In this document: in pieces, positions 7,167 to 38,613 of the stretch | Numbering within the stretch: position 1 is the stretch's first letter | Layout: every line of letters starts with the position of its first letter | DNA from: Candidatus Woesearchaeota archaeon | GTDB lineage: Archaea > Nanobdellota > Nanobdellia > Pacearchaeales > GW2011-AR1 | NCBI GenBank assembly: GCA_964395405.1 | Contig: CAYNAV010000003.1 | Coordinates: forward strand, 1 to 38,663 | Direction: 5' to 3' | DNA length: 38,663 nucleotides | Notes under the pieces: model-generated | The model's database searches: none | What the model was told of the DNA's origin: nothing | What the model saw: only the letters and a program-made list of their open reading frames with translations | Made by a program: the position numbers and the translations under genes

Positions 7167-7203
7167 GAAAAATTAAGAAATCAGCAAATAAAAAAGACGC
7201 CCT

Positions 7204-7237
7204 TGAATATCACAAAATACCCATACGCCCCAACCGG
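7204..7237. repeat. 34-bp direct repeat, copy B (tRNA-Asp nt 61-72 plus 22 nt 3' flank)
   Basis: Identical to 23..56. Confidence 0.8.
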
Positions 7238-7297
7238 GGATTGAACCCGGATCCCGGCCGCGACAGGGCCGTGTACTAACCACTATACTATTGAGGC
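7226..7297 (-). tRNA. tRNA-Asp: tRNA-Asp (anticodon GUC), 72 nt, no encoded CCA
   Basis: Reverse complement is GCCTCAA TA GTAT AGTGGTTA GTAC A CGGCC CTGTCGC GGCCG GGAT CCGGG TTCAATC CCCGG TTGGGGC G. The acceptor stem is 7 bp with one G-U. D, anticodon and T stems all pair. The anticodon loop C-T-GTC-G-C gives GUC. Discriminator is G. Confidence 0.9.
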
Positions 7298-7298
7298 A
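7281..7298. repeat. attL-type 18-bp direct repeat (tRNA-Asp nt 1-17 plus 1 nt), identical to 38614..38631
   Basis: cactatactattgaggca at both sites, 18/18. Flanking bases differ on both sides. Confidence 0.8.
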
Positions 7299-11529: not shown

Positions 11530-11937
11530 TTATTTTAAAAAATCCCATCGGTCTTTATATTTAATATTTCGTTGGAATGAATACCAGCAACTATTTTTTC
11601 TTTTTGATACATCTACATTCTTTGAAACAATTTTACTTGGAACAATGTAAAAATCAGGATTTTTATTTTCTTTTAAATTTACAAAAACATAAATCAAATT
11701 ATTTGAAGAAACATTTTTTGATTCTTCATTTAAAAGCCAGAAAGAAGGATTGCCCCAAGAAGCTTTAACCTGAATATTAAATGTTTTTTTAAAATCCGGA
11801 GTAGATGCCATAATATCCACATGAGGGGCATTTCTTGAAGTGACTGTAACAATATACCCCTTTGCGGAGAGTTCAGTTGCCACTGCATAAACGCCAGTCA
11901 TCCCCGTTACAAATCTTCCACGATCAGATTTTACCAT
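11530..11937 (-). CDS. small Hjc-like PD-(D/E)XK-fold protein (D...Q-x-K variant)
   Basis: GMTGVYAVATELSAKGYIV..VDIMAS..FNIQVKAS follows the archaeal Holliday-junction-resolvase-like layout. The first helix Glu is not evident. ATG 11937 shares one base with the TGA of the CARF gene. Confidence 0.55.
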   Translation of the reverse strand: MVKSDRGRFVTGMTGVYAVATELSAKGYIVTVTSRNAPHVDIMASTPDFKKTFNIQVKASWGNPSFWLLNEESKNVSSNNLIYVFVNLKENKNPDFYIVPSKIVSKNVDVSKRKNSCWYSFQRNIKYKDRWDFLK

Positions 11938-12542
11938 CACAACCTCGCAATCTTCCCGGCATCAGTAAGTTCGATACCTTTTTCAGTAGAAATTAAGTCC
12001 ATTTCTTTTAATTCGTCAATAGCCCTATAAAGCATAGCTGTGGAAAGTTCAATCTTGTCAGCCAATTCCACGATACTTTCATATTTATTTTTCCCAATTT
12101 CTACTAATATCTTTTTCTGGCTCTCAGTTAACCTAAAGCTTAACCTAGGCAAATAAACGATTGAGCTGTTCTTATCCTCTTCAGGGTTATATGCAATCTT
12201 CTTAACTCTCTCGTGGCGCGCATAGGCTGCGAATAATAAGCCCATTGCCTGTGTTTTTCTTCCAGAGGTAAGATTTAGGTAAATATCATCTTCATTTGGC
12301 TGCAGGTCTATAATTTCTACGCATTTCTTAGCTATTTCAACTATGTTATAAAGGTCAATCTTTACAATTTTGACATCAATAACCTTTCCTAATGAATCCT
12401 GTATAAGCTTTACGGATGCTTCCTGGATCTTGTCTGAATCTTTGCTCGTTAAAAGAATAAGCCTTTCAGGGCCTAGCCTAGTTGATGCTAATAAAACCGG
12501 CTCTGGATGATAGACTGTTGCAATAAGAACTTTTTTCCCCAT
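11937..12542 (-). CDS. Csa3-like CARF domain + C-terminal wHTH regulator
   Basis: About 200 aa with a Rossmann-like N-terminus (KVLIATV..). NLTSGRK fits the CARF signature [DN]-x-[ST]-x3-[RK]. C-terminus LTESQKKILVEIGKNKYESIVELADKIELSTAMLYRAIDELKEMDLIS is a wHTH. Confidence 0.65.
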   Translation of the reverse strand: MGKKVLIATVYHPEPVLLASTRLGPERLILLTSKDSDKIQEASVKLIQDSLGKVIDVKIVKIDLYNIVEIAKKCVEIIDLQPNEDDIYLNLTSGRKTQAMGLLFAAYARHERVKKIAYNPEEDKNSSIVYLPRLSFRLTESQKKILVEIGKNKYESIVELADKIELSTAMLYRAIDELKEMDLISTEKGIELTDAGKIARL

Positions 12543-12709: not shown

Positions 12710-12913
12710 ATGAAGACTTTGAAATTTTCAAAAATAACAAAAGCAATAGACCGAGGATTAGTCTCCAAGTTTGGAGAAGCTCTATATGGTGCAGAAGAAG
12801 TAGAATCTATTTCAATCAAGGTTGATTTTAAGGATGGAAGTGTAATTGGTTTTAAGCGTTCTGAGGATGACGATAGACATGAAAGGAGAATGGAAAAATT
12901 TGACCATGACTAG
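12710..12913 (+). CDS. hypothetical small protein (67 aa)
   Basis: First ORF after the TATA-like box. Overlaps the next gene by 8 nt. Confidence 0.45.
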   Translation: MKTLKFSKITKAIDRGLVSKFGEALYGAEEVESISIKVDFKDGSVIGFKRSEDDDRHERRMEKFDHD

Positions 12914-13427
12914 TAAAGAAATTCTAAAAAGTGTAATAGTGTTTGATAGCATTCTTAGTCTTGAGAAGGGACTAGGTACGGTATTGCATCTAAAGAGTTT
13001 AATTAATTTTCTTAAAGATGATGTTAAAAGATATAATGAAAAGATGAGTATAAAAGAGATTAAAGAAATTTTAGATGTTTTATTGACCTCAGGAATTTTG
13101 ATTACCCGGGAAAAAGGATACATTGAAAGAGCTAGGGTATATAAGGAATCTCAAGAAAATAAAAAGGGTAACATTTCTAGGGAAGTAGCCAATGCCATTT
13201 CTAATTCAATTAGTTCAGGGGATTTAACTATCACAAATCAAGATGGAGAAGAAACAAAAGACGAGTCTCTATGCGATGTTTGTGGAAAAGATATTGGTAT
13301 CTGTCTAAATGCCTATTCTTATCACATTATTGTTTCTGATGATAAAATGGTCTTAGAAGAAAAGTTGTTCTGTACAAAAAAGTGCTGGGAGAAATATTTG
13401 TTAAAAGAAGCTAAAAAAGTAAAATGA
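12906..13427 (+). CDS. putative wHTH + TRASH-like zinc-finger protein (173 aa from ATG 12906)
   Basis: C-terminus CDVCG...x29...FCTKKCWEKY (C-x2-C ... C-x3-C). The N-terminus is helical. Confidence 0.5.
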   Translation: MTSKEILKSVIVFDSILSLEKGLGTVLHLKSLINFLKDDVKRYNEKMSIKEIKEILDVLLTSGILITREKGYIERARVYKESQENKKGNISREVANAISNSISSGDLTITNQDGEETKDESLCDVCGKDIGICLNAYSYHIIVSDDKMVLEEKLFCTKKCWEKYLLKEAKKVK

Positions 13428-13609
13428 AAAAACAAACAACTAAATTCAAATGTGATAATTGTGGAAAAGTTAAACATAGAGATTCAAATGTTAAGTTAAT
13501 CAATTCTTATGCTAATTGGACTACTGATTATTGTTCATGGGATTGCTTTATGGAATATGCTAAATCTTATCTTAGGGCTATTGGATATCAAGTGAGGAAG
13601 AAGAAATGA
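13424..13609 (+). CDS. small TRASH-like zinc-finger protein
   Basis: FKCDNCGK...x23...YCSWDCFMEY (C-x2-C-x23-C-x3-C). ATGA overlap with the upstream gene. Confidence 0.5.
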   Translation: MKKQTTKFKCDNCGKVKHRDSNVKLINSYANWTTDYCSWDCFMEYAKSYLRAIGYQVRKKK

Positions 13610-13767: not shown

Positions 13768-14157
13768 ATGAAAGAAAAAGAATTAATAATAAAAATAGAA
13801 TTGGCAAAAGCTTGGATGAATTTTGCTTATTTACTTTTTTTCATCGGGGTTTTTCTTTTTGTTAATTCATATTTCTTATTTGAAATGTCTTACAGTATGG
13901 ATTCTGCATCAATAAAAGGCGTAAGTAATGTATTTATTTATGACTCTCAGCACTCAACAAATTTCACAGATAAATGGCAAGAATTAGCCGGACCATTAAT
14001 CAAAAGTTCAAGGGATTTTAAGACCTATGGATTTCTTTTTACTTACTGCGCATTATTCATGCCGATTGTTAGCTTAATATTTTGGTTGATAGGTTATCAC
14101 AAGATAAAAGCATTGAGCAATCCAAACAAAGATAAATGGTGGAGAAGGTTTTTATAG
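13768..14157 (+). CDS. membrane protein (2-3 TM)
   Basis: Hydrophobic helices FAYLLFFIGVFLFVNSYFLF and YGFLFTYCALFMPIVSLIFWLIGY. Confidence 0.5.
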   Translation: MKEKELIIKIELAKAWMNFAYLLFFIGVFLFVNSYFLFEMSYSMDSASIKGVSNVFIYDSQHSTNFTDKWQELAGPLIKSSRDFKTYGFLFTYCALFMPIVSLIFWLIGYHKIKALSNPNKDKWWRRFL

Positions 14158-14885
14158 TTTGCCGGTGTGGGGTTAATATGGATAGAGAAGCTATAAAGAA
14201 GATTTCTAGTGAGATTGATAAAATTGGAGAAGATCTCGTTAAATGCAATAATAATTGCGAAGGCGTTTGTGGTGGAAATGAAGAAGATAAGAAAAAAGGG
14301 ATTATGCCCCGATGCTTATATTTTGAAGAGAGACATGGCGAAGGAGGGATTATTGTTGTTGGAATGAATCCAGGGGTCGCAGATGAGAAGTATGAGAAAA
14401 ATGAGTTTTTAGATAAGGAAAAGCGTAATTACCCATGTTATAAAAGTTTTTTTGAGAAGAAAATGCTTAGAGTTGATGGCAAAAATTATTATAATCCTGT
14501 TAGGAAGGTAGTTGATAAGCTGGGTTTTAATGGATCTATTCTTTGGACTGAGATTGTAAAATGTCAATGTGCGGAAAAGAAAAAAAATCTTACTAAAGAG
14601 ACTAAGATAATTTGCGCCAATAATTTTCTCAAAAAGGAAGTTAAAACAACCCCTTCAGATTGGCAAATAATTACAATTGGCAATCCTGCATATGACCTTT
14701 GTTCAAAATTGTTTTCAAAAAGGAAAATTATAGGTATTTATCACAATTCGGGACAAGCAAGAAGATATTGGAAGAAATTTTTGAAGAAGTTTAATGAAAC
14801 AACGAAAGATGAAATAAGAGAATACTTAAAATTAAAATTAAATAATTCTAAGGCATTTCACCTTAGAATGTTGGAGGGAATTTAA
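14136..14885 (+). CDS. uracil-DNA-glycosylase-superfamily-like protein with SMUG1/MUG-type GMNPG motif (alternative start ATG 14178)
   Basis: IIVVGMNPG (motif 1 of UDG families 2/3), LWTEIVKCQC, IIGIYHNSGQAR in the place of motif 2. Cys-rich N-terminus CNNNCEGVCGG. Confidence 0.5.
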   Translation: MVEKVFIVCRCGVNMDREAIKKISSEIDKIGEDLVKCNNNCEGVCGGNEEDKKKGIMPRCLYFEERHGEGGIIVVGMNPGVADEKYEKNEFLDKEKRNYPCYKSFFEKKMLRVDGKNYYNPVRKVVDKLGFNGSILWTEIVKCQCAEKKKNLTKETKIICANNFLKKEVKTTPSDWQIITIGNPAYDLCSKLFSKRKIIGIYHNSGQARRYWKKFLKKFNETTKDEIREYLKLKLNNSKAFHLRMLEGI

Positions 14886-14886
14886 C

Positions 14887-16401
14887 ATGGCAAGAAGTAT
14901 CCAAACAACCAAATACATGCCCATTCTTTCAAAATCAAAGTATCTAACGGGTTTGCAATGCCTAAAATCCCTTTGGGTTTCCGTTCATGCAAAAGAAAGA
15001 ATTCCAGAAACTGACGAATCCCAGCAACATATTTTTGACGAAGGACAGATTATAGGAGAGTACGCTAAGAAGTTATTCCCAAGGGGTATAGATATTCCAG
15101 ATGAAGATCTTACAAAGAATCTCAAGAAAACAAAAGAGCTTATTCAGAGTAAGCCAAGGAAAATACTGTTTGAAGCTGCTTTTTCACCAGAAGGAGAAAG
15201 AGTCTATTCAAGAGCAGATATCTTAAAACCAGTCAAAGGAAATAAATGGGATATCATTGAGGTAAAAAGTTCTACTCAAGTCAAGAATGTAAATGTCTCG
15301 GATGTAGCTTTCCAAAAATATTGTTATGAAAAAGCAGGCCTCATAATAAACAAGTGCTTTATTTTACATATAAACAATGAATATGTAAGAAAAGGAAAAA
15401 TCAATATAAAAAAGTTGTTTGTAAAAGAGGATATAACTGAGAAAGTTGAAGAAGAAATCCAGAATGTTCAAGAAAACTTAAAGATTATGTTTGAAGTCGT
15501 TGATTCTTCTGAACCAGAAATGAAAATTGGAAGTTGTTGCAATTCTCCTTATGAATGTGCATTAAAGCCTGAATGTTGGAAGTCTTTGCCAGAGCATAAT
15601 GTATTTGACTTATACTATGGTGGGAAGAAGTCAGTTAAGCTTTTGGAAGAGGGAATTGTTTCTATAAGGGATATTCCAGAAGGCTATGAATTAACAGATA
15701 AGCAGAAAATTCAGCATTATTGTATTAAGAGTGAAGAGCCTCATGTGAATAAAGGGAATATAAAGAAGTTTATTGATTCTTTGCAATATCCTCTTTATTT
15801 TTTAGATTTTGAAACATTCCAGACAACAATTCCAATTTATAACCACCAGAGCCCATATCAACAGGTCCCTTTTCAGTTTTCATTGCATGTAATTGAAAAG
15901 AAAGATAAGGAGCCAAAACATTATTCTTTTTTAGCTGAAGGCAGTAAAGACCCAAGAAAGGAATTCTTAAAACAGCTTAAAAAAGCAATTGGGAAAAAGG
16001 GAAGCATAATTGTTTATAATCAATGCTTTGAACAAGGAGTTTTGGAAAAGTTAGCAAAAGTCTTTCCAAAGCAAAAAGAGACTATTGCTGAGATAACCGA
16101 CAGGATGGTTGACCTTCTTTCTCCTTTCAGAAGCTTTGATTATTACGACCATAAACAACAAGGCTCTGCATCAATTAAGAATGTCTTGCCTGCTTTAACT
16201 GGCAAAAGTTACGAAGGAATGGATATAGCTAATGGGGCAAATGCGAGTTTGCAATTCTTTTATGCTGCCCATGGCTTGAATGGGAAAAAGGCGACAGATG
16301 CAGAGATTAAGAAGATAAGGGCAGATTTATTAAAGTACTGCCATCTTGATACTATGGCTATGATTTGGATATTGAATAAACTGGGGGAGGCAATTAAGTA
16401 A
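14887..16401 (+). CDS. DUF2779-like dual nuclease: Cas4/RecB-like PD-(D/E)XK domain with 1+3 Cys pattern + C-terminal DEDDy-type 3'-5' exonuclease-like domain
   Basis: LSKSKYLTGLQCLKSLW. ADIL..WDIIEVKSS (D..E-x-K). CCNSPYECALKPEC. FLDFET (Exo I-like), VYNQCFE (Exo II-like), YCHLD (Y-x3-D, Exo III-like). GGAGGG SD upstream. The start lies 1 nt after the upstream stop. Confidence 0.65.
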   Translation: MARSIQTTKYMPILSKSKYLTGLQCLKSLWVSVHAKERIPETDESQQHIFDEGQIIGEYAKKLFPRGIDIPDEDLTKNLKKTKELIQSKPRKILFEAAFSPEGERVYSRADILKPVKGNKWDIIEVKSSTQVKNVNVSDVAFQKYCYEKAGLIINKCFILHINNEYVRKGKINIKKLFVKEDITEKVEEEIQNVQENLKIMFEVVDSSEPEMKIGSCCNSPYECALKPECWKSLPEHNVFDLYYGGKKSVKLLEEGIVSIRDIPEGYELTDKQKIQHYCIKSEEPHVNKGNIKKFIDSLQYPLYFLDFETFQTTIPIYNHQSPYQQVPFQFSLHVIEKKDKEPKHYSFLAEGSKDPRKEFLKQLKKAIGKKGSIIVYNQCFEQGVLEKLAKVFPKQKETIAEITDRMVDLLSPFRSFDYYDHKQQGSASIKNVLPALTGKSYEGMDIANGANASLQFFYAAHGLNGKKATDAEIKKIRADLLKYCHLDTMAMIWILNKLGEAIK

Positions 16402-16432: not shown

Positions 16433-18277
16433 ATGGAATCTCAGAAGATAATAGATGCAAATGACAGAAGTGTTAGAGAAATCCTAGATAAAGTCAAATA
16501 CCATATAGATGTATTTCAAAGAGAATATAAGTGGGGAGTAAGGCAGATTGAACAATTAATTGATGATATCACTAGTAGATTTCTTGCAGATTATCAAAAT
16601 GCCCATACTAGAGAAGATGTGGAAAAATATGGCAAATATTATTTAGGCTCTATTGTTATCTGTTCAAAAGATGGAAAGAGATCTATAATCGATGGGCAAC
16701 AAAGACTTACTTCTTTAACTCTTTTACTTATTTACTTAAATAATTTACAAAAAGATAGAGAAGATAGTGTACCTATAAAAGATTTAATCTTCTCTGAAAA
16801 ATTTGCTAAAAAATCATTTAATTTGCAAGTAGATGACAGAGAAGAGTGTATTAGCTCATTGTATACCCGGGGGGATTATGATGCTTCAGATAAAAATGAG
16901 TCTGTCAAAAATATTGTTGAGAGATATAGAGATATCGTAGACCTTTTCCCAGAAGAGCTGAAAGGAGACGCTTTACCTTATTTTCTTGATTGGTTAACTG
17001 AAAATGTAATTTTTGTAGAAATATCTACTTTTTCGGATGAAGATGCTTATACTATTTTTGAAACGATGAATGATCGTGGGTTAAATCTTACTTCCGCAGA
17101 GATGTTAAAGGGATATTTAATTTCAAATCTAGATTCGCAAGAAGACAAATTAGAGCTTAATGAATTATGGAAAAAAAGAATATTGCAACTTAAAGAAATA
17201 GATAAAGAAGAAGACTTAGAGTTTTTTAAATCATGGTTAAGGGCCAAATATGCAGAAAGCATTAGACAAGGAAAAAGAGGGTCTGAGAATGAGGATTTTG
17301 AAAAAATAGGTACTAGATTTCATAGCTGGGTGAGAGATAATAAGGAAAAAATCGGATTAAAAAATAAAATGGATTTTTATAAATTCATAAAACAAGACTT
17401 TGATTTTTATATTAAACTTTATTTAAAAATTAATTCTGCCGCAGAAAACCCCCAAAAAAATTTAGAGAGTATTTACTATATCTACCAAAGAGGGTTCACA
17501 TTATATCCTCCCATATTAATGGCTCCAATCAAAATTTCAGATGATGAAGAAACAATTAATAAAAAATTGGCATTAGTCTCTAAGTTTTTGGAAATGTTCA
17601 TTGTTTTTAGATCCATCAACTTTAGGACCTTAGGTTACAGTGCAATTAGATATACAATGTTTAGTCTAGTTAAGGAAATAAGGAATGTCAATATCAAACA
17701 ACTTGCAGAGATTTTAAAAAAGAAAGCATCGGAATTTGAACAAAATCTGGAAGGTATGAAGAATTTAAGATTAAATGGGCAGAATAAACGATTTATCCAC
17801 TTTTTATTAGCTAGGATAACCAAATACATAGAAGATAATTGTAGCATCCCTAGTAACTTTCAAGCTTATATTGACCCAGAATTAAAAAAGCCATTTGAAG
17901 TAGAACATATCTGGTCAGACATTTTTGAGGAACATAAAGAGGAATTTGATCAAAGAGATGATTGGGAAGAGTATCGAAATAAGATAGGAGCATTAATTCT
18001 TTTACCCCGGGGTTTCAATCAAAGTTATGGCAAGCTACCTTATAGTAAAAAACTTCCACATTATTTTGGACAAAACATTTTAGCCAAAACCCTAAATGAG
18101 CAATGTTATAATAAAAACCCGACATTTTTGCAGTTTATCAAGAATTCAAAATTGCCATTCAAGCCATATACAAACTTTAAGAAAAAGGAGATAATTGAAA
18201 GAACAGAATTATACCAAAGAATATGCGAAAAGATATATGATATAAATGAATTTGATAAAATCGCCGGTAATAATTAA
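16433..18277 (+). CDS. GmrSD-family type IV (modification-dependent) restriction enzyme, DUF262 + DUF1524
   Basis: N-terminal IIDGQQRLTSL (DGQQR ParB-like NTPase motif). C-terminal EVEHIWS...NKIGALILLPRGFNQS (His-Me/HNH-like DUF1524). Confidence 0.85.
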   Translation: MESQKIIDANDRSVREILDKVKYHIDVFQREYKWGVRQIEQLIDDITSRFLADYQNAHTREDVEKYGKYYLGSIVICSKDGKRSIIDGQQRLTSLTLLLIYLNNLQKDREDSVPIKDLIFSEKFAKKSFNLQVDDREECISSLYTRGDYDASDKNESVKNIVERYRDIVDLFPEELKGDALPYFLDWLTENVIFVEISTFSDEDAYTIFETMNDRGLNLTSAEMLKGYLISNLDSQEDKLELNELWKKRILQLKEIDKEEDLEFFKSWLRAKYAESIRQGKRGSENEDFEKIGTRFHSWVRDNKEKIGLKNKMDFYKFIKQDFDFYIKLYLKINSAAENPQKNLESIYYIYQRGFTLYPPILMAPIKISDDEETINKKLALVSKFLEMFIVFRSINFRTLGYSAIRYTMFSLVKEIRNVNIKQLAEILKKKASEFEQNLEGMKNLRLNGQNKRFIHFLLARITKYIEDNCSIPSNFQAYIDPELKKPFEVEHIWSDIFEEHKEEFDQRDDWEEYRNKIGALILLPRGFNQSYGKLPYSKKLPHYFGQNILAKTLNEQCYNKNPTFLQFIKNSKLPFKPYTNFKKKEIIERTELYQRICEKIYDINEFDKIAGNN

Positions 18278-18291
18278 AAAGGAGAAAAATT

Positions 18292-19749
18292 ATGTTTGAG
18301 CAAATATTCAAAAATATTGATGACATCCTCTGGAAAGAGGCAGGCTGCGGAAGTGAATTGGATTATGTTGAACAGACCTCTTGGGTTTTATTCCTAAAAT
18401 ATCTTGATGATCTTGAAAAAAAGAAAAGAACTGAGGCAGAGTTGGATGGAAAAGAGTATAAAGAAATTCTTGCTCCAGAATTTAGATGGGATGTTTGGGC
18501 AGTTCCAAAGGATAAAGAAGGAAAACTTGATTACCATAAAGCACTCAGCGGAGATGATTTGAAAGATTTTGTTGACTTAAAACTATTCCCTTATTTAAAA
18601 AAATTTAAAGTTGACGCAGAACATGCAGATACTATTCAATACAAGATTGGAGAGATTTTTAGTGAGATTAAGAATAAAATCCAGAGTGGATACAACTTAA
18701 GAGAGATAATTAATCTTATAGACCAATTGAAGTTTCGTTCTAGCTCTGAAAAACATGAGATGTCGCACCTCTATGAGTCTAAAATCCAGAACATGGGAAA
18801 TGCTGGAAGAAATGGTGGAGAATATTACACCCCACGACCATTAATTAAAACAATTGTTAAAGTTGTAGATCCTAAAATAGGGGATAAGGTTTATGATGGT
18901 GCAGTGGGTTCTGCTGGTTTCTTATGCGAAGCGTTTGAATATCTAAAAGAAAATAATAAAAACCGTTCCACAAAACAAGATGAGCTTTTACAAACAAAGA
19001 CTTTTTATGGAAAAGAAAAGAAATCGCTGGCTTATATTATTGGAATTATGAATATGATTTTTCATGGAATTGAAGCTCCAAATATCCTTCATACTAATAC
19101 ATTGGCAGAAAATCTTTCAGATATACAGGAAAAAGATAGATATAGTATTGTTTTAGCAAATCCACCTTTTGGTGGAAAGGAAAGAGAAGAAGTTCAGCAA
19201 AATTTTCCAATTAAGACAGGGGAGACAGCATTTTTGTTTCTGCAACATTTTATTAAGATATTAAAGGCAGGCGGAAAAGCAGGTATTGTTATTAAGAATA
19301 CATTTTTATCTAACTCCGATAATGCTTCTGTTTCATTAAGGAAGCACTTGCTTGAAAGTTGTAATTTACATACGATATTGGACTTGCCTGGAGGAACTTT
19401 TACAGGTGCAGGAGTAAAAACAGTTATTTTATTTTTTGATAAGGGAACATCAACAAAGAAGGTATGGTACTATTCGCTTAATTTAGATAGAAACTTAGGT
19501 AAAACTAATCCCTTAAGTGAAAATGATTTGGCTGAATTTATTAAACTCCAAAAGACAAAGGCTGATTCTAAAAATTCTTGGACTATAGATATTGCAGACA
19601 TAAATCCAGATACCTTTGACTTATCTGTAAAAAACCCTAATAAGAAAGAAGAAGCACAATTAAGAAAACCAAAAGAGATCTTAGAAGAAATGAAAAGATT
19701 AGATAAAGAAAGCGAGCAAATTCTTAACTCAATTAAGGAGATAGTTTAG
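18292..19749 (+). CDS. hsdM: type I restriction-modification system, N6-adenine DNA methyltransferase subunit
   Basis: GEYYTPRPLIKTIV, VYDGAVGSAGFL (AdoMet motif I), LANPPFGG (NPPF motif IV). GGAG SD upstream. Confidence 0.9.
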   Translation: MFEQIFKNIDDILWKEAGCGSELDYVEQTSWVLFLKYLDDLEKKKRTEAELDGKEYKEILAPEFRWDVWAVPKDKEGKLDYHKALSGDDLKDFVDLKLFPYLKKFKVDAEHADTIQYKIGEIFSEIKNKIQSGYNLREIINLIDQLKFRSSSEKHEMSHLYESKIQNMGNAGRNGGEYYTPRPLIKTIVKVVDPKIGDKVYDGAVGSAGFLCEAFEYLKENNKNRSTKQDELLQTKTFYGKEKKSLAYIIGIMNMIFHGIEAPNILHTNTLAENLSDIQEKDRYSIVLANPPFGGKEREEVQQNFPIKTGETAFLFLQHFIKILKAGGKAGIVIKNTFLSNSDNASVSLRKHLLESCNLHTILDLPGGTFTGAGVKTVILFFDKGTSTKKVWYYSLNLDRNLGKTNPLSENDLAEFIKLQKTKADSKNSWTIDIADINPDTFDLSVKNPNKKEEAQLRKPKEILEEMKRLDKESEQILNSIKEIV

Positions 19750-19751
19750 AG

Positions 19752-20279
19752 ATGGCAGATATAGATCCGATAAAGGCAATTTTAGGACTTGTTTCTGTAT
19801 TTTTCTCTGTTCTTCTTGTTATTTTTCTTTTTTCGTACACTAATGATACCTTGATTAAAGACAAATGTCAGCCCTACCAACAGCAAATTGACCAGAATCA
19901 GATTACAATAACTTCTCTAAACCTAACAGTAAACCAAACCAATAAACTTCTGCAAGAATGCAAGGATAACTATCTAGAATTGATTAAACAAAATATTACT
20001 AAAAAAGACATAGAAGAAATAAAAGGATACTACAACATTACTCAAATCCAAATAGGAGAACTTAATCAAAAATTTGAACAGATAAATACTAATTATCTAA
20101 AGATTTATAATACAATCATAAATAAATATGACATATCATTTGCATTAAATATAGTATTCAGCATAGAAATATTGAGCTTTTTATTTTTAAAGAATGAATT
20201 TGCCTTGATAGTTATAAATTGGTTTAAAAGAAAGAAAAAAGGGTCTGAAACAAATAAAATTCCGATAAAAACAATATGA
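19752..20279 (+). CDS. bitopic/2-TM coiled-coil membrane protein embedded in the type I R-M operon
   Basis: N-terminal TM AILGLVSVFFSVLLVIFLF, an N/Q-rich coiled coil, C-terminal TM FALNIVFSIEILSFLFL. Starts 2 nt after the hsdM stop. Confidence 0.6.
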   Translation: MADIDPIKAILGLVSVFFSVLLVIFLFSYTNDTLIKDKCQPYQQQIDQNQITITSLNLTVNQTNKLLQECKDNYLELIKQNITKKDIEEIKGYYNITQIQIGELNQKFEQINTNYLKIYNTIINKYDISFALNIVFSIEILSFLFLKNEFALIVINWFKRKKKGSETNKIPIKTI

Positions 20280-20908
20280 AAACTAAAGAAAAGAAAATTA
20301 AGAGGTTGGGGGAAAATCTTCATTTGTTTTGGAGCTCTTATCAGCATATGCATGATGTTAGGGAGAGAAAGGCAAAGGGCATGATAGACTTTCTATTGAT
20401 AATTTCTACATTTTTGCCAATTCTTTCAGTTACCCTTTTCACAACTAGCTTATTTAATAATCCTTTAATTTTATTTCCACTAATCCCTCAATTTTTATCT
20501 ATTGTAATTTTATTAAAATATTTTGTCGTTGGAAATCCCTCGGTTCATTGGTTTAAATTAGATAAGAACTTCTTGGCAGGTTTAGATAATGGCAATTTTG
20601 AGACCGAGCTGATAGCTTCTTTGAAACAATTAGAAAATATGACTTTTATTTCTATGAATGAAGAGGGAAAACTGATAAGATATTCTAGAAATTTAATTCT
20701 ATTTTCTTTATTCGCTTTGGCTTTATCAATGATATTTATTTTATTTAATGGAAGTCTTTATTTATACTTTATTTCTCTTATTTTAATTTCTATTTCTGGC
20801 TATATTTTTTTAGTATACTACAAACGAACTCCAGACTTTTCGAAATTAGATGAAGACTTTAACAACTCAAAAAAACTACTCGAGGACTGGATTAAAAATG
20901 AAAAGTAA
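20276..20908 (+). CDS. 4-TM membrane protein embedded in the type I R-M operon
   Basis: ATGA overlap with the upstream gene. Amphipathic lead-in ..RERKAKGMIDF, then two TM hairpins (res ~38-85 and ~139-182) separated by a ~50-aa soluble loop. Confidence 0.6.
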   Translation: MKTKEKKIKRLGENLHLFWSSYQHMHDVRERKAKGMIDFLLIISTFLPILSVTLFTTSLFNNPLILFPLIPQFLSIVILLKYFVVGNPSVHWFKLDKNFLAGLDNGNFETELIASLKQLENMTFISMNEEGKLIRYSRNLILFSLFALALSMIFILFNGSLYLYFISLILISISGYIFLVYYKRTPDFSKLDEDFNNSKKLLEDWIKNEK

Positions 20909-22034
20909 TTGGGTAATCAAGAAGCTAGGGGAAGTTTGTGACAAGGCATCTTCTAATGTTTCTCAAAATCAGTTAGATAATGAAAGCGGGAAATATTCCA
21001 TTTTTGGTGCAAGTGGATTAATAAAAAATGTTAGCTTTTATCATCGAGATAAGCCTTATATATCCATAATTAAAGATGGTGCAGGCATTGGAAGATTGAC
21101 ATTACAACCAGCGTATTCATCAGTTATTGGAACTCTACAATATTTAATCCCGAAGAAAGAAATTGACATTAGCTATCTTTATTATTTTTTACAAAGAATT
21201 GATTTTAATAAACATCGAAATGGTGCGACTATTCCTCATATTTATTTTAAGGATTATTCAGAAGAAGAAATAGGCGTCCCTCCACTTGCCACACAAAAAC
21301 TTATCGTTTTCATCCTAGACAAATCCTTTAAAAAAATAGCCAAAGCAAAAGAAAACGCTGAAAAAAACTTAAAAAACGCCAAAGAGCTTTTTGATAGTCA
21401 TTTACAAAGCGTTTTTGAGAATAAAGGCAAAGGATGGGAAGAAAGAATGCTTAAAGAAATAGGTATTACACAAACGGGGACAACACCCAAAACTATAGAC
21501 AAAAAAAATTACGGAGATTTCATTCCGTTTATAACACCTGCTGACATTGATATCTCTGGTAACGGTGAAATACAATATGACAGCAAGGGGTTGAGCGAGC
21601 AAGGTTTAGATAATGGCAGAAAAATGTTAGCGGGTTCAATCTTGATGGTTTGCATCGGTGCTACTATTGGGAAAGTCGGATTTATTGACCGTGATGTTTC
21701 TTGTAATCAACAAATAAACTCATTGACAGTCAAGAAAGAATTTTCCTCAAAATTTATTTATTACGCATTAAGCACAAAATCTTTTTTTGAACAAGTAATG
21801 CATAATGCTGCTCAGGCAACTTTACCAATTATCAATAAAGGAAAGTGGGAAACACTCATAATTAGTTTTCCAAAATCCCTCCAAGAACAACAATCCATAG
21901 TCTCCAAGCTCGACGCCCTTTCAGCAGAAACCAAGAAACTAGAAGCAATTTATCAACAAAAATTAAAGGATTTAGAAGAACTGAAAAAATCAATTTTACA
22001 AAAAGCTTTTAACGGAGAGTTAGTTAAAGAATAA
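20898..22034 (+). CDS. hsdS: type I R-M specificity subunit (two target-recognition domains)
   Basis: MKSNWVIKKLGEVCD start is typical of TRD1. Central and C-terminal conserved helices (ATQKLIVFILDKSF..., EQQSIVSKLDALSAETKKLEAIYQQKLKDLEELKKSILQKAFNGEL). The track start 20850 is also possible. Confidence 0.85.
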   Translation: MKSNWVIKKLGEVCDKASSNVSQNQLDNESGKYSIFGASGLIKNVSFYHRDKPYISIIKDGAGIGRLTLQPAYSSVIGTLQYLIPKKEIDISYLYYFLQRIDFNKHRNGATIPHIYFKDYSEEEIGVPPLATQKLIVFILDKSFKKIAKAKENAEKNLKNAKELFDSHLQSVFENKGKGWEERMLKEIGITQTGTTPKTIDKKNYGDFIPFITPADIDISGNGEIQYDSKGLSEQGLDNGRKMLAGSILMVCIGATIGKVGFIDRDVSCNQQINSLTVKKEFSSKFIYYALSTKSFFEQVMHNAAQATLPIINKGKWETLIISFPKSLQEQQSIVSKLDALSAETKKLEAIYQQKLKDLEELKKSILQKAFNGELVKE

Positions 22035-22035
22035 C

Positions 22036-24348
22036 ATGAGCGAACAAGACACAAGAGCAGAGTTAATTGAACCAAAACTTAAAGAAAGTGGTTGGGGAAT
22101 TATTGAAAATACTAAAATTAGAAGGGAGTATCCCATAACTGCTGGAAGAATACAGATTGGTGGAAATAGAGCAAAACCCCTATTCGCAGATTTTGTTTTA
22201 GAGTTTAATGGAAGAAAACTTGCAGTTATTGAAGCTAAAAAAAGTTCTTTGAATGTTACGGAAGGTAGAGCCCAGGCAGTAGAATATGCTAAAAAACTAC
22301 AAATTGAGTTTACTTTTACAACCAACGGGAAAGAGATCTATCAAATAGATATGGAAACTGGGAAAGAAGCATTAGTCAAAAGTTTTCCAACCCCAGAAGA
22401 GATTTGGAATAAGACCTTTAGAGTTCAAAATGAATGGAAAGATAAATTTAATGCGATTCAATTCGGAGGAAAAAATAAGCCAAGATTTTATCAAGAAATT
22501 GCAATAAATAGAACCTTAGATGCTATTGCAGAAGATAAAAATAGACTATTATTAACTCTTGCTACGGGAACTGGAAAAACAGCTATTGCTTTTGAAATTG
22601 CTTGGAAACTCTTTTATTCAAAATGGAATCTAAGGAAAGATGGCTCTAGGCATCCCCGGGTTTTATTTTTAACAGATAGAAATAATTTAGCAAATCAGGC
22701 ATTTAATGAGTTCTCACCTTTTCCAGAAGACGCGTTAGTCAGGATTAAACCAAAAGAAATAAACAAAAAAGGTAAAGTTCCAACAAATGGAAGCATTTTC
22801 TTTACAATTTTTCAAACTTTCATGTGTGGAAAAGATAATAGCCCTTATTTTGGACAGTATCCTAAAGATTTTTTTGATCTTATTATAATCGATGAATGCC
22901 ATAGGGGAGGAGCAAATGATGAAGGTAATTGGAGGGGGATATTAGAATATTTCTCCCCAGCAGTCCAACTTGGTTTAACAGCAACACCTAAAAGGAGAGA
23001 GAATGCAGATACTTACAAGTATTTTGGAAATCCATTATATACCTATTCACTAAAAGAAGGAATTGAAGATGGATTCTTGACGCCATTTAAAGTTAGAAGA
23101 TTTAAGACCACCTTAGACGAATATGTATATACATCTGATGATGATGTTGTTGAGGGTGAAGTGGAGGTGGGAAAAATCTATCAAGAAACAGATTTTAATA
23201 AAATAATTGAAATAAAGGAAAGAGAAGCGAAAAGAGTAAAACTCTTTATGGGCGAAATAAATCAGAATGAAAAAACAATTGTTTTTTGTGCAACCCAAGA
23301 CCATGCTTTAGTTGTTAGAGACCTTATAAACCAATATAAGAAAAGCAAGGATGTAAATTATTGCGTCAGAGTAGCTGCAAATGATGGGGCTCTTGGAGAT
23401 CAATACCTCGAAGAATTTAGAGATAATGAAAAAACAATTCCTACAATTTTAACAACATCACAAAAACTTTCAACAGGGGTTGATGCAAGAAATATAAGAA
23501 ATATTATTTTAATGAGACCTGTAAAGCAAATAATTGAGTTTAAACAAATCGTAGGTAGGGGAACTAGATTATTTGATGAAAAGGAATTTTTCACAATTTA
23601 TGATTTTGTTGATGCTTACAGAAATTTTAATGATCCCGAATGGGACGGAGAACCTTTAGAACCTGTTTTAACAGAAAAAATAGCAAAACCAATGAAAATA
23701 AAAGAAAAAGGAGATGAATACCCAGAAAGTTATGAAGAAGAGTTAGAGGGAAAGAAAAAGAAAATAAAGATTAAGCTCGCAGATGGAAAAGAAAGAGAAA
23801 TCCAGCATATTAGCACAACGTATTTCATCAGCAAAAATGGAAAACCGATTTCATCAACTGAATTCTTACAAAATTTATTTGGTGACTTACCTAAATTATT
23901 TAAAAATGAACAAAAATTAAGAGATATTTGGAGTAGTCCAATAACAAGAAAATCATTTTTGCTAAAACTTGAAGAAGCCGGATATGGCGTAGAAGTACTA
24001 AAAGAAGCTCAAAAAATTATTGTGGGTGCTGAGAAGAGTGATTTATTTGATGTTTTGGAGTATATTGCCTCTGCAAAAAAGCCAATTTCACGAGAAGAAA
24101 GAGTTGCAAAATCCCAAAATAAGATATTTGAAGATCTAGACATCAATCAAAAGGAATTTTTAGATTTTGTTTTGACCAAATATGTGGAGTCTGGAGTTGA
24201 AGAATTAGATTTAGAGAAATTATCACCCCTATTGAGATTAAAGTATCAAGAAGTTGAAGATGCTACTGACTTGCTTGGCGGAGTTAAAAAAATAAGAGAA
24301 ACATTTATTGGATTTCAAAAACATTTATATGCTGCTAAAAAAACTTAA
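22036..24348 (+). CDS. hsdR: type I R-M restriction subunit (nuclease + SF2 helicase/translocase, EcoEI-R-type C-terminus)
   Basis: MSEQDTRAELIEPKL, ADFVL..LAVIEAKK (D..E-x-K), LATGTGKT (motif I), IIIDECHRG (DEAH-type motif II), LGLTATP (III), QIVGRGTR (VI). C-terminal FLDFVLTKYVESG..L helical domain. Confidence 0.9.
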   Translation: MSEQDTRAELIEPKLKESGWGIIENTKIRREYPITAGRIQIGGNRAKPLFADFVLEFNGRKLAVIEAKKSSLNVTEGRAQAVEYAKKLQIEFTFTTNGKEIYQIDMETGKEALVKSFPTPEEIWNKTFRVQNEWKDKFNAIQFGGKNKPRFYQEIAINRTLDAIAEDKNRLLLTLATGTGKTAIAFEIAWKLFYSKWNLRKDGSRHPRVLFLTDRNNLANQAFNEFSPFPEDALVRIKPKEINKKGKVPTNGSIFFTIFQTFMCGKDNSPYFGQYPKDFFDLIIIDECHRGGANDEGNWRGILEYFSPAVQLGLTATPKRRENADTYKYFGNPLYTYSLKEGIEDGFLTPFKVRRFKTTLDEYVYTSDDDVVEGEVEVGKIYQETDFNKIIEIKEREAKRVKLFMGEINQNEKTIVFCATQDHALVVRDLINQYKKSKDVNYCVRVAANDGALGDQYLEEFRDNEKTIPTILTTSQKLSTGVDARNIRNIILMRPVKQIIEFKQIVGRGTRLFDEKEFFTIYDFVDAYRNFNDPEWDGEPLEPVLTEKIAKPMKIKEKGDEYPESYEEELEGKKKKIKIKLADGKEREIQHISTTYFISKNGKPISSTEFLQNLFGDLPKLFKNEQKLRDIWSSPITRKSFLLKLEEAGYGVEVLKEAQKIIVGAEKSDLFDVLEYIASAKKPISREERVAKSQNKIFEDLDINQKEFLDFVLTKYVESGVEELDLEKLSPLLRLKYQEVEDATDLLGGVKKIRETFIGFQKHLYAAKKT

Positions 24349-33472: not shown

Positions 33473-34014
33473 TTTCCACCTCCAGAGCTTTCTAAAGGCG
33501 AAGTAATCGCTTCTGGAATTCTCCTTCCAATATCTAATTTTTTAAGATTGGTGTGTTCTAGAACCTTCCATGCCTCGCTAGGTATTGTCTGTTTTTGTAA
33601 TGGACTATTTTTTACAAGAAATATTGCAAGACTGTATAGGTCTGGCTTAATCAAAGGTATTCTCCTTGAATATCGCAAAAATTCTCTTACATCCTTATCA
33701 TTGATTTTTGTATAGTCTTTTTTCTCTACCTTATCAAAATATCCTTTTGCCTTGTTCAACCATACATCCAACCTTTTCATCTTTATTTTTACAGACTTCC
33801 AGTTCTCAGCAATCCTATTATAATTTCTGCTATTCGGAGAATTGTCATTCTTTAGCATTTCAACAACATTATCCTCTCCAAAATCCTGAATACAAAGGTC
33901 AACAAATTCCTTAAGATAATAGATATCATTACCCATACTTGAGCCTCCAAATGCTCCCCACTTTCTCAAGTAAATTTGATAGACTAAATGAGGAGAACTT
34001 ATTAAATTTGGCAT
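33469..34014 (-). CDS. hypothetical protein
   Basis: ATG start overlapping the recombinase gene end by 13 nt. No motif. Confidence 0.45.
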   Translation of the reverse strand: MPNLISSPHLVYQIYLRKWGAFGGSSMGNDIYYLKEFVDLCIQDFGEDNVVEMLKNDNSPNSRNYNRIAENWKSVKIKMKRLDVWLNKAKGYFDKVEKKDYTKINDKDVREFLRYSRRIPLIKPDLYSLAIFLVKNSPLQKQTIPSEAWKVLEHTNLKKLDIGRRIPEAITSPLESSGGGN

Positions 34015-34715
34015 TTTTCAAAAACCGCCCTAGAAATTATTTGCTTATGAGACCCTATAAGCTGATCTCTATACTTGATAAATCCACAATAGCTTATATT
34101 TGAAAGCATATATTTTATTGTTGCTGGAATAAAATTAAGTTCTGATGCTATTTCTTTTATTTCTTTTTTTTGCATTCTTAATTCAAAAGCTCTTTTTACT
34201 ATCTTTGCTTCTTTATTTGAAACAATCCATTTCCTTGTTTTCTTTTCAATTTTATAACCAAATGGAGGTCTTGATACAGGCTTTTTTTGTTTTAATCTAG
34301 ACTGATGTTCAACTTCTACTCTCTTTTGAAAAAACTTCCTTTGATATTGATTCATAACCCCTTGCATCTGCCTTATTTCATCTTCTTGCGTCCCATCGCA
34401 ACTTATAACTTTTATCCCCAAGTTATTCATTTCTTCAACAAAAAGTTCTTGATCTATAAGCCTCCTACTCAGTCTTGAGAATTCAAGAATATAGATAAAA
34501 TCGAATAATTTATTTTTTGCATCTTCTTTTAACTTTTTCAATTGCTTTCTCCTCCTAAATGAACCCCCGCTTTTTCCGATATCTGAGTAAACTTCAATAA
34601 CCTCATAGTTTCTTTTTTTAGCTTCTTGCCTGCAAATTTCTTCTTGAGTTCTATTTGAATCTCTAATATTATTTTTTTCTTCTGCAGATGTCCTCGTATA
34701 TATACATGCTTTCAT
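34002..34715 (-). CDS. serine recombinase (resolvase catalytic domain + partial recombinase domain, only 237 aa)
   Basis: CIYTRTSAEE (Y-x-R-x-S nucleophile), SDIGKSGGSFRRR, FSRLSRR, then PPFGYK typical of the large-serine-recombinase 'recombinase' domain. No zinc-ribbon or coiled-coil tail. Confidence 0.8.
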   Translation of the reverse strand: MKACIYTRTSAEEKNNIRDSNRTQEEICRQEAKKRNYEVIEVYSDIGKSGGSFRRRKQLKKLKEDAKNKLFDFIYILEFSRLSRRLIDQELFVEEMNNLGIKVISCDGTQEDEIRQMQGVMNQYQRKFFQKRVEVEHQSRLKQKKPVSRPPFGYKIEKKTRKWIVSNKEAKIVKRAFELRMQKKEIKEIASELNFIPATIKYMLSNISYCGFIKYRDQLIGSHKQIISRAVFEKCQI

Positions 34716-37484: not shown

Positions 37485-38567
37485 TTAAAACACTTTTAAA
37501 TTATCAACTAAACCCTTAATTTCATTCTTAAATTTTTTGTCATCAATTTTACCTAATTCTTTTTCAAGTAAAAGCTTCGTTAAACGGCTTAGGTTTTCAA
37601 TCTCTAATTCTAACTTATGTTTCTTTTCTGGGGGCATATCCTCAATTTTGTAAATAGTCTTACTCATTGCTTCCTTAACATCTTTGTTGCTTAAATGAGT
37701 ATAAACATCGCCCATACTCTTGGAATGTCCTAAGAATTTCTGTGCTGTCTTATCTGGTATTCCCGCATTGGTATAAAGTTCTGTTGCTCTGGAATGTCTT
37801 AAAATATAGGGATAAACACTTCTCCCTAAAACCTTTTCAGATATTCGCCCTAACCAAACAGCAGGAAGGCTTTTATCCATTGGTTTGGTGTCATCCTTTG
37901 GTGCGGGAAAAACTAAATCTGTTTTGCTTTGTTCTTTTAACTTCTTCAAATAGAATGTAGCCTCCTTAACATAAACACTTCTTGCCTTATGGGTTTTACT
38001 TGCATAAATGTTTATTTCTGTTATCTCATCCTTATCAATATCAAACTTTATGTTTTTCCAGAGTAATGTTCTTAATTCAATAGGCCTTAATCCAGATTCA
38101 TATAAAGCCATAAAAAAGGCTTTCCAGAATAGTTTAGGCTCTGCTTTCATTATTGCCTCAACATCTTCTTTTTTCAGGAGAGTATCTGCGTTTATCTTTT
38201 CCTCATTAATTCGCATTATCAGTTTAATATCTTCTAAATTGCTAAATCTCTCACTCCAATCTTTAAACTTCCATTTCAAAAACCTTTTAATTGTGAACTT
38301 TAGATCATTTCTTGTTGATTGTGTCTTATTTGAATTGTTTAATAATGCTAAGAAATCTCTTAAGTCTTGCAGGGTGGCTTTATCCAAAGGTTTCTTAATC
38401 AAATACCTAAACTCTGTTAAGCCTCTTTGATTATTGTCCAATCTTCTCTGGGATTTAGAAGTAATTGAAACATACTTAATAAAATCCTGAATCTCTTTTT
38501 GTTCAGGTTTAGGGAGTTTTGAGTATATCTCCTGGACTTCTCCCCTTTTGAATGTTGGGTATTTCAT
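37485..38567 (-). CDS. int: tyrosine recombinase / integrase (360 aa from ATG 38567; track start is GTG 38609)
   Basis: GLRPIELRTL (Arg I), THKARSV (Lys), ILRHSRAT (H-x-x-R), FLGHS (His/Trp position), DVYTHL (Tyr nucleophile). Confidence 0.85.
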   Translation of the reverse strand: MKYPTFKRGEVQEIYSKLPKPEQKEIQDFIKYVSITSKSQRRLDNNQRGLTEFRYLIKKPLDKATLQDLRDFLALLNNSNKTQSTRNDLKFTIKRFLKWKFKDWSERFSNLEDIKLIMRINEEKINADTLLKKEDVEAIMKAEPKLFWKAFFMALYESGLRPIELRTLLWKNIKFDIDKDEITEINIYASKTHKARSVYVKEATFYLKKLKEQSKTDLVFPAPKDDTKPMDKSLPAVWLGRISEKVLGRSVYPYILRHSRATELYTNAGIPDKTAQKFLGHSKSMGDVYTHLSNKDVKEAMSKTIYKIEDMPPEKKHKLELEIENLSRLTKLLLEKELGKIDDKKFKNEIKGLVDNLKVF

Positions 38568-38588
38568 AGAATATAAACCCAATAGCAC

Positions 38589-38596
38589 TATATAAA
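38589..38596 (-). promoter_or_regulatory. TTTATATA box of the integrase gene, between ATG and attR
   Basis: The minus strand reads tttatata, 21 nt upstream of ATG 38567. Confidence 0.4.
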
Positions 38597-38613
38597 GTTT
38601 ACTTATCACCTTA

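Follow-up and report, generated by a model that had tools for sequence, protein, structure and literature searches.

The window analyzed here is the whole stretch of 38,663 nucleotides (GC content ~31%) of contig CAYNAV010000003.1 from Candidatus Woesearchaeota archaeon (assembly GCA_964395405.1), and our subject is a pair of adjacent genes in it that encode a divergent protein of the uracil-DNA glycosylase (UDG) superfamily, predicted to be a [4Fe-4S] DNA glycosylase, and a DUF2779 protein. The glycosylase gene (14178..14885, plus strand, 235 aa; the longest open reading frame (ORF), from 14136, encodes 249 aa) and the DUF2779 gene (14887..16401, plus strand, 504 aa) are followed on the same strand by a gene for a GmrSD-type (type IV, modification-dependent) restriction enzyme (16433..18277; GmrSD_N, E-value 8.4e-35; GmrSD_C, E-value 1.6e-6; PADLOC model HEC-06, E-value 7.7e-40) and by a type I restriction-modification (R-M) operon (18292..24348; Pfam N6_Mtase/HsdM_N, Methylase_S and ResIII/EcoEI_R_C/HSDR_N) that encompasses hsdM (18292-19749), hsdS (20850-22034) and hsdR (22036-24348), the gaps across the array being 1, 31 and 14 nt. 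A first-pass annotation, which had proposed the pair as a candidate two-gene system against base-modified invader DNA, was correct in locating it in a defense island, with GmrSD and the type I R-M system directly downstream, and in placing the stop codon of the first gene, which ends at 14885, 1 nt ahead of the ATG of the second at 14887; the latter ATG is preceded by GGAGGG.

Residues of the glycosylase are numbered here as in the 249-aa ORF, although translation probably starts at the ATG at 14178 rather than at 14136, the start chosen previously, because position 14178 is used by the database gene call P0001, the N-termini of the homologs align there and GGTGTGGGG is located 4-12 nt upstream of this ATG. 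With this start, a small hydrophobic ORF directly upstream (13768..14157, plus strand, 129 aa, no significant family match) no longer overlaps the glycosylase gene, with which it may be cotranscribed. The cysteine-rich N-terminus that had been attributed to the protein is thereby reduced to its conserved part, Cys37-X3-Cys41, the 'CRCG' portion being probably untranslated. The other motifs are present where they had been reported, namely VVGMNPG (motif A, residues 74-80), LWTEIVKC (136-143) and YHNSGQAR (motif B, 202-209, reported as IYHNSGQAR). Across 91-110 relatives, the conserved positions are Cys37, Cys41, Cys143, Cys160, Asn78 of the GxNPG motif, Trp-Thr-Glu 137-139, Lys142 and His203; the four cysteines are invariant or nearly so, and GxNPG and the motif B histidine are retained in at least 90% of these sequences.

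The match of the window protein to the Pfam UDG family (PF03167) falls slightly short of the cut-off (22.4 bits vs 24.3; E-value 1.4e-4), and a precomputed match to the same family is available for 5 of the 6 closest relatives and for about half of the wider family. In the AlphaFold2 model (pLDDT 88, built on 110 sequences), the protein has the alpha/beta UDG fold: a Foldseek search against the PDB returned high-probability matches to UDGs only (1ui0, probability 1.0, TM-score 0.45/0.53; 5gn2, probability 0.96), and against BFVD the best match was gp315 of Bacillus phage G, with six of the ten top matches named as UDG, UDG-like or polymerase-linked proteins and the rest unnamed. UDGs thus rank first in both structure libraries, and the UDG fold that had been postulated for the first protein is upheld. 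Direct sequence searches of the PDB with either protein of the pair yielded nothing significant; profiles of the glycosylase family produced sub-significant PDB matches only, namely 1ui0 and, at motif A, TDG, and NCBIfam contains no model for the glycosylase.

Within the superfamily, the best structural and profile match is the family 4 UDG of Thermus thermophilus (1ui0). The profile alignments place Cys143 and Cys160 at the two C-terminal cysteines of the cluster segment and LWTEIVKC opposite YITNIVKC; a further alignment to the T. thermophilus UDG sequence, the segment 75-124 of which agrees with the PDB output, gives the same correspondence and places motif A opposite GEGPG. The four conserved cysteines match the [4Fe-4S] ligands of the family 4 enzymes, so that such a cluster is predicted for the window protein, and the T-x-IVKC strand and the motif B histidine are likewise held in common. 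Nevertheless, the protein differs from family 4 in several respects: it has GMNPG in place of the motif A GE(A/G)PG, its family reads WT(E/D)IVKC where family 4 has TN(I/V)VKC, so that Glu or Asp stands for the uracil-reading Asn, the N-terminal cysteine pair is CX3C as opposed to CX2C, and the TM-score is just 0.45-0.53.

The first-pass annotation had identified the glycosylase as a SMUG/MUG (family 2/3) enzyme, and here only motif A, with its catalytic Asn, agrees. Families 2 and 3 are characterized by motif A GINPG and GMNPG and by motif B MPSSAR and HPSPRN (PMC4787834). Compared with family 3 (SMUG1), the window protein has the matching motif A but YHNSGQAR at motif B (consensus of its own family, PHP[TS]G) instead of HPSPRN, and no SMUG1 chain appears among the PDB sequence matches at E-values up to 10; compared with family 2 (MUG/TDG), motif B is again different from MPSSAR, and TDG chains match 24 residues around motif A only (E-value ~0.5). 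The scaffold and the four Fe-S-aligned cysteines resemble family 4 instead. The glycosylase is therefore a divergent member of the UDG superfamily that is neither SMUG nor MUG, from a lineage that appears to combine a family 4-type Fe-S scaffold with a motif A of the Asn type, as in families 2 and 3, and an acidic residue in the position of the family 4 Asn.

The last of these features bears on the substrate. In UDGs, this Asn reads the O4/N3-H face of uracil, and its replacement by Asp in human UNG creates cytosine excision. The base-reading position is usually Asn (N82 in the Sulfolobus tokodaii UDG), and in the antiviral glycosylase Brig1 it is occupied by Glu147, which is essential (PMC11078745); the Brig1 sequence contains ..VVLGLNPG.. 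and ..ILNFELYPW... Because Glu replaces the uracil-reading Asn, and given the chemistry of the UDGs, we infer that the target would be a base of the cytosine type rather than of the uracil/thymine type. The residue present here, as in Brig1, would thus point to a cytosine-type target rather than to 5-hydroxymethyluracil or deoxyuracil.

The second protein is a typical DUF2779 member, with a Cas4-like PD-(D/E)XK domain (14887..15636, residues 1 to ~250) followed by a DUF2779/RNase H-like DEDDy 3'-5' exonuclease domain (15784..16401, residues ~300-504). It matches PF11074 over the full length of the model (1-126; 150 bits vs a cut-off of 23.3; E-value 5e-44), RNase_H_2 (PF13482; E-value 1.8e-5) and, in residues 92-231, the PADLOC Cas4 model (E-value 7.9e-6). 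The motifs of the nuclease core are ADIL (110-113), IIEVK (123-127) and QKYCY (143-147), the cysteine pattern consists of Cys25 and Cys218/224/230, and the exonuclease triad is FLDFET (305-310), YNQCFE (377-382) and YCHLD (484-488). Among 64 homologs, Asp111, Glu125, Lys127, Cys25, Cys218, Cys224, Asp307, Glu309, Glu382 and Tyr484 are invariant, whereas Gln143 with Tyr147, Cys230 and Asp488 are kept in at least 90%. Foldseek searches with the AlphaFold2 model (pLDDT 93.8) matched the N-terminal half to Cas4 (8d3l_I, E-value 3.5e-6), AdnAB, Exo5, MGME1 and SSO0001, and the C-terminal half to 3'hExo, ERI2 and an exonuclease-containing polymerase of African swine fever virus. Thus, the PD-(D/E)XK core, the 1+3 cysteine pattern, the DEDDy triad and the DUF2779 layout, all recognized in the first-pass annotation, are confirmed.

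The fusion of Cas4-like and DEDDy domains has been described already (Majorek et al. 2014, PMC3985635; the 2026 analysis of MMSYN1_0389, PMC13621843). MMSYN1_0389 and other PF11074 proteins have the identical architecture, except that MMSYN1_0389 keeps two of the Cas4 cysteines and the window protein all four. The Cas4-like domain of the window protein is of the solo type, that is, without linkage to cas1/cas2 or to a CRISPR array: the window has no repeats resembling an array, and no cas1 or cas2 turned up in family scans that covered most, not all, of its ORFs.

The two families differ greatly in abundance. More than 7,690 DUF2779 homologs were detected at E-values up to 1e-10, nearly all of them without this glycosylase as partner; the 63 that were aligned show 52-73% identity to the window protein, and the named best homologs come from Pacearchaeota, Nanoarchaeota and Woesearchaeota, names that by themselves would make the host probably a DPANN-type archaeon. 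Relatives of the glycosylase are rare: six (~40% identity) came out of a word-indexed search among 5.8 billion proteins, an exhaustive profile search yielded 519 clusters among 1.84 billion representatives (E-values up to 1e-3), nearly all with G[ILM]NPG, and among 185,579 species (one genome per species) there are 48 loci. These are scattered over Chloroflexota, Patescibacteria, Bacteroidota, Planctomycetota, Thermoplasmatales, Methanosarcinales, Micrarchaeota and Woesearchaeota, among others, with isolated carriers in Alicyclobacillus, Variovorax and Akkermansia genomes.

The gene neighborhoods of the glycosylase differ between its close subclade, which comprises 10 distinct loci at 34-42% identity to the protein encoded in the window, and the wider family. 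A Cas4-like nuclease is encoded within two genes of the glycosylase at 5 of the 10 subclade loci vs none of the 46 wider-family genome loci, at which an iterated local search extending to 8 kb gave no ORF of the Cas4-like, PDDEXK_1 or DUF2779 kind (hand-calculated Fisher test, p ~7e-5, a value made conservative by the shorter contigs of the subclade and optimistic by the non-independence of its loci). In the window, the order is glycosylase-DUF2779; in L005, the C-terminus of a DUF2779 protein is followed by the glycosylase gene (4-nt overlap), a 61-aa ORF and hsdM; in L003/L069, the glycosylase gene is preceded by a gene for a 218-aa Cas4-like protein (PDDEXK_1 and Cas_Cas4); in L001/L063, a gene for a 397-aa PDDEXK_1 protein and a 105-aa ORF precede it, with a type IIG R-M gene 2.5 kb beyond; and in L066, the glycosylase gene is followed by an overlapping PDDEXK_1 gene of the L001 type. 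The partner nucleases are thus of three different Cas4-like kinds and occur in either gene order. R-M genes are located near the glycosylase in about half of the subclade (the window, L001, L005, L006, where the glycosylase gene is followed by hsdM, and probably L003). Two further neighbors, a 302-aa protein in L064 (DUF5655) and a 183-aa protein in L004 ('PDF..VEIK'), look PD-(D/E)XK-like by eye without profile support and were not counted.

Several of the subclade sequences call for comment in their own right. The glycosylase copies in L064 (1545-2069) and L065 (1020-1664) are truncated at the N-terminus, lack the CX3C segment and have DSQHPPGAN at motif B, and are probably decaying or truncated; they share one coding sequence, set in two different upstream contexts. 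In L007, where the glycosylase gene follows a Doc/Fic-like gene fragment, the 329-aa database protein (114-1103, P0006) is a read-through call that, under the standard code, spans three in-frame stops, the real start of the glycosylase being at ~423. The 61-aa ORF of L005 (953-1138), with the pattern MAVA..RRRAG...EEEH..RL.MLKSLGILK and no Pfam family, has a homolog in L058 (2659-2844) that is also located directly upstream of hsdM.

In the wider family, no Pfam neighbor recurs in more than one of the 92 directly flanking genes (counted at 46 of the 48 genome loci and on the short contigs of the subclade), and PADLOC matches among the wider-family neighbors are scattered over defense-type models, none of them recurrent; no enrichment is claimed. 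The pairing that had been suggested from the window is borne out in part, a Cas4-like nuclease being encoded close to the glycosylase at half of the close-subclade loci, and it belongs to neither family at large, as the 92 flanking genes and the more than 7,690 DUF2779 homologs indicate.

For the DUF2779 protein, we inspected eight loci that encode close homologs of the window protein, and R-M-type genes adjoin the DUF2779 gene in six of them (the window, L005, L058, L061, L071 and L072). L058 has the order DUF2779, PDDEXK_1, the homologous 61-aa ORF, hsdM and hsdS; L061, DUF2779, SNF2, methyltransferase and Res; L071, type IIG R-M, PDDEXK_1, HNH, DUF2779, hsdM and hsdS; and L072, type IIG-like genes, ResIII helicase and DUF2779, whereas in L056 and L059 genes for AAA_14, RadC, NUDIX, an AlkD-type repair protein and AbiEii are found nearby. 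DUF2779 accordingly seems to be linked to R-M systems in general, in keeping with the report that solo-Cas4 genes of DPANN archaea adjoin R-M systems (Hudaiberdiev et al. 2017, PMC5704561). No glycosylase gene of the present family is located beside the DUF2779 genes of L056-L062 or L071-L073.

A second solo-Cas4-type nuclease, PDDEXK_1 as in L001 and L066, is encoded beside DUF2779 in L058 (1834-2613), L071 (1920-3092, minus strand) and L056 (10233-10592), and the two kinds of nucleases may be partners of each other. In L059 (3477-5374), genes for NUDIX, OmdA and an AlkD-type repair protein ('DNA_alkylation') come after the gene for the DUF2779 homolog, and RadC and AbiEii are encoded close by; the locus is a second case of DUF2779 near a glycosylase, one of an unrelated fold. 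As in the window, where two ORFs without a significant family (19752-20279 and 20276-20908, plus strand) separate hsdM from hsdS, extra ORFs occur between these genes in related DPANN-type loci, L058 having one of 230 aa with a faint DUF2240 match and L071 two, of 150 and 382 aa.

Antiviral glycosylases with the UDG fold are already known, namely Brig1, an alpha-glucosyl-5-hydroxymethylcytosine DNA glycosylase (PMC11078745), Brig2 and Brig3-BapA (bioRxiv 10.1101/2025.10.29.685425; 10.64898/2026.02.25.707755). Brig1 resembles the window glycosylase in its fold, in its motif A (GLNPG vs G[ILM]NPG), in the acidic residue that stands for the base-reading Asn (Glu147 vs Glu in WTE), in its defense-island setting and in its rare, patchy distribution. 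However, no homology between the two is detectable outside motif A (in hhalign, a probability of 4.6% over the 22 columns surrounding it), Brig1 lacks the four-cysteine pattern of the window family, and it is mainly actinobacterial and acts alone, whereas the window subclade looks DPANN-like. Brig2 and Brig3, which are compared here by description only, are likewise UDG-superfamily glycosylases recruited to defense. The homologs of Brig2 are mostly from Pseudomonadota and Bacillota; Brig3 is similar to the window case in having an operon partner, BapA, that widens its range, except that BapA is a deglucosylating hydrolase and not a nuclease.

Taken together with the gene neighborhoods, these similarities suggest that the glycosylase is a probable Brig-like defense enzyme in a DPANN island of solo-Cas4 and R-M genes. 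Our preferred reading, in which activities, substrate, cooperation and defense role are all deduced from sequence and gene context and to which we incline with somewhat more doubt than conviction, is that the pair would provide the opening two cistrons of a compact defense array, all in one direction, that continues with GmrSD and the type I R-M system. Under this reading, the glycosylase would be monofunctional and, like Brig1 and Brig3, would act on a non-canonical base of invading DNA, probably a derivative of cytosine, which it would flip out and excise so that abasic sites are left; the DUF2779 protein, combining a Cas4-like 5' nuclease with a DEDDy 3'-5' exonuclease and apparently serving as a general companion of restriction systems in these archaea, would enlarge or degrade nicked, abasic or restricted DNA ends. 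A coupling of glycosylase and nuclease within the subclade is plausible and would be facultative, each gene occurring also without the other. A stronger version, which we consider rather unlikely, is a modular 'base-excision restriction' of small-genome archaea in which the Fe-S glycosylase would mark the base and an interchangeable Cas4 family nuclease (DUF2779, PDDEXK_1 or minimal Cas4) would be needed for the abasic sites to become degradative breaks.

Weighing against the defense reading are, to begin with, the size and nature of the sample, since the subclade comprises just 10 loci that are phylogenetically non-independent and mostly located on contigs of 1-3 kb; the fact that the short gap between the two genes carries little weight because such gaps are the rule throughout the window; the atypical motif B of the window protein, HNSGQ where its own family has the consensus HP[ST]G; and the lack of any PADLOC-DB 2.0 model that matches the glycosylase above the noise (LmuA, E-value 0.0024; SIR2, E-value 0.0071).

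Further points against it are at the same time points in favor of an alternative that is unlikely but has to be taken seriously, namely that the pair is a base-excision repair module, in which the glycosylase would remove endogenous lesions (deaminated, alkylated or etheno-cytosine-type) and DUF2779 would trim 5' and 3' ends, both being maintenance enzymes of a reduced genome with R-M neighbors that are incidental or linked through the repair of self-restriction damage. The enzymes of the UDG superfamily serve mainly in repair; the wider glycosylase family has no conserved partner and is often located amid housekeeping-type genes (YgbB, tRNA synthetase, UbiD); the abundance and high conservation of DUF2779 and the quasi-essentiality of its homolog MMSYN1_0389 in JCVI-syn3.0 (PMC13621843) suit maintenance as well as defense; solo-cas4 genes evolve like ordinary genes, without an arms-race signature (PMC5704561); and in L059 the DUF2779 gene precedes the NUDIX and AlkD-type genes, with radC nearby. 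However, with 48 loci in 185,579 species the glycosylase is far too rare and patchy for core repair, its subclade is found repeatedly in R-M and type IV restriction contexts, the Glu in place of the uracil-reading Asn speaks against ordinary uracil repair, and the adjacency of DUF2779 to R-M genes in six of the eight loci is not expected by chance.

The remaining points against the defense reading concern the coupling of the two genes, and they fit a second alternative that we likewise hold to be improbable without being negligible. Here, the two would be independent island genes, the glycosylase acting alone in the manner of Brig1 and Brig2, with the nucleases as accessories or flank markers and the adjacency resulting from a shared hot spot. 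The known UDG-fold defense glycosylases function as single proteins; a glycosylase gene is missing from six of the eight DUF2779 loci inspected, and PDDEXK_1 genes of the solo-Cas4 type accompany DUF2779 without a glycosylase in L058, L071 and L056; in L006, the glycosylase gene adjoins hsdM and has no nuclease gene nearby (none in the 940 nt upstream); and in L058 and L005 a single slot seems to hold different cassettes, the gene orders implying that the glycosylase occupies a swappable cassette slot. Against independence stands the finding that three non-orthologous Cas4-like nucleases directly adjoin or overlap the glycosylase gene in both orders, a classic signature from which functional linkage is argued, and in L005 and L066 the start codon of one gene overlaps the stop codon of the other.

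A third possibility, cargo of a mobile element or virus that serves its own replication or counter-defense (e.g., a UDG-like protein with a recombination exonuclease), would fit the phage UDG-like proteins among the best BFVD matches, the frequency of Cas4-like nucleases in archaeal viruses and mobile elements (PMC5704561), and the serine recombinase, tyrosine integrase and tRNA-linked direct repeat of the window, but it is very improbable: a scan of 2.9 million viral contigs gave a single distant relative of the glycosylase, for which reason the viral-gene idea was set aside, PHROGs searches with ten surrounding unknown ORFs detected no capsid, terminase, polymerase or primase (three had weak matches, mostly to families of unknown function), and the surrounding array, with its type IV and type I restriction systems, is of the host type.

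Other features of the window include two small cysteine-rich proteins (12846-13427 and 13424-13609, plus strand) that open the same-strand run of genes to which the pair belongs and have zinc-finger-like C-termini with weak zf-FCS and DUF7576 matches. Further upstream, a 201-aa protein (11937-12542, minus strand) in which a Rossmann domain similar to HFX_2341, CARF_Card1 and Csa3 is fused to a winged helix-turn-helix domain resembles a CARF-type sensor-regulator, but neither a CRISPR array nor cas genes were detected in the window. A 38-nt direct repeat (97% identical) is located at 19-56 and 7200-7237, the second copy overlapping the 3' end of a tRNA-Asp gene (7225-7298, minus strand); the two copies resemble a pair of att sites around ~7.2 kb that encode an AAA_28 ATPase, an NMT1-type ABC transporter and a TrmB regulator, and no integrase was recognized between them. 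At the right end of the window, genes for a serine recombinase with Resolvase and Recombinase domains (34002-34715, minus strand) and a tyrosine integrase (37485-38609, minus strand) fit an integrated element or its border. A scan for bacterial-type promoters and terminators gave the same counts as shuffled sequences, and the host is probably an archaeon.

The antiviral principle of UDG-fold glycosylases, the architecture of DUF2779 and the adjacency of solo-Cas4 and R-M genes in DPANN archaea are already known. The DPANN study describes CRISPR-free Cas4 family nucleases adjoining R-M genes in small-genome archaea, as in the present loci, but reports no glycosylase partner, and the word 'glycosylase' is absent from its text (PMC5704561). 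Neither a UDG lineage that combines Fe-S cysteines, an Asn-type motif A and an acidic base-reading residue nor a recurrent pairing of such a lineage with Cas4 family nucleases was found in the searchable literature. The glycosylase belongs to a rare, previously uncharacterized lineage of the UDG superfamily.

To our knowledge, DNA glycosylases that act against viruses (Brig1-3, the Dag families) represent a very recently recognized principle, so far reported from bacteria only and mostly as single proteins. If the repair interpretation is true, the lineage would be an ordinary but unannotated UDG subfamily. If instead the lineage is active in defense, it would extend the antiviral glycosylase principle to DPANN-type archaea, the defense repertoire of which is poorly known, and would add an Fe-S scaffold to the antiviral UDG folds; it would also offer a testable role for two orphan groups, the DUF2779 proteins and the R-M-adjacent 'solo-Cas4' nucleases of small genomes, and the exchange of Asn for Glu provides a concrete, checkable prediction of the substrate class. 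Should the modular scheme of base-excision restriction prove true as well, it would be the first defense pair of a glycosylase with a nuclease and, for archaea, the first description of an antiviral glycosylase.

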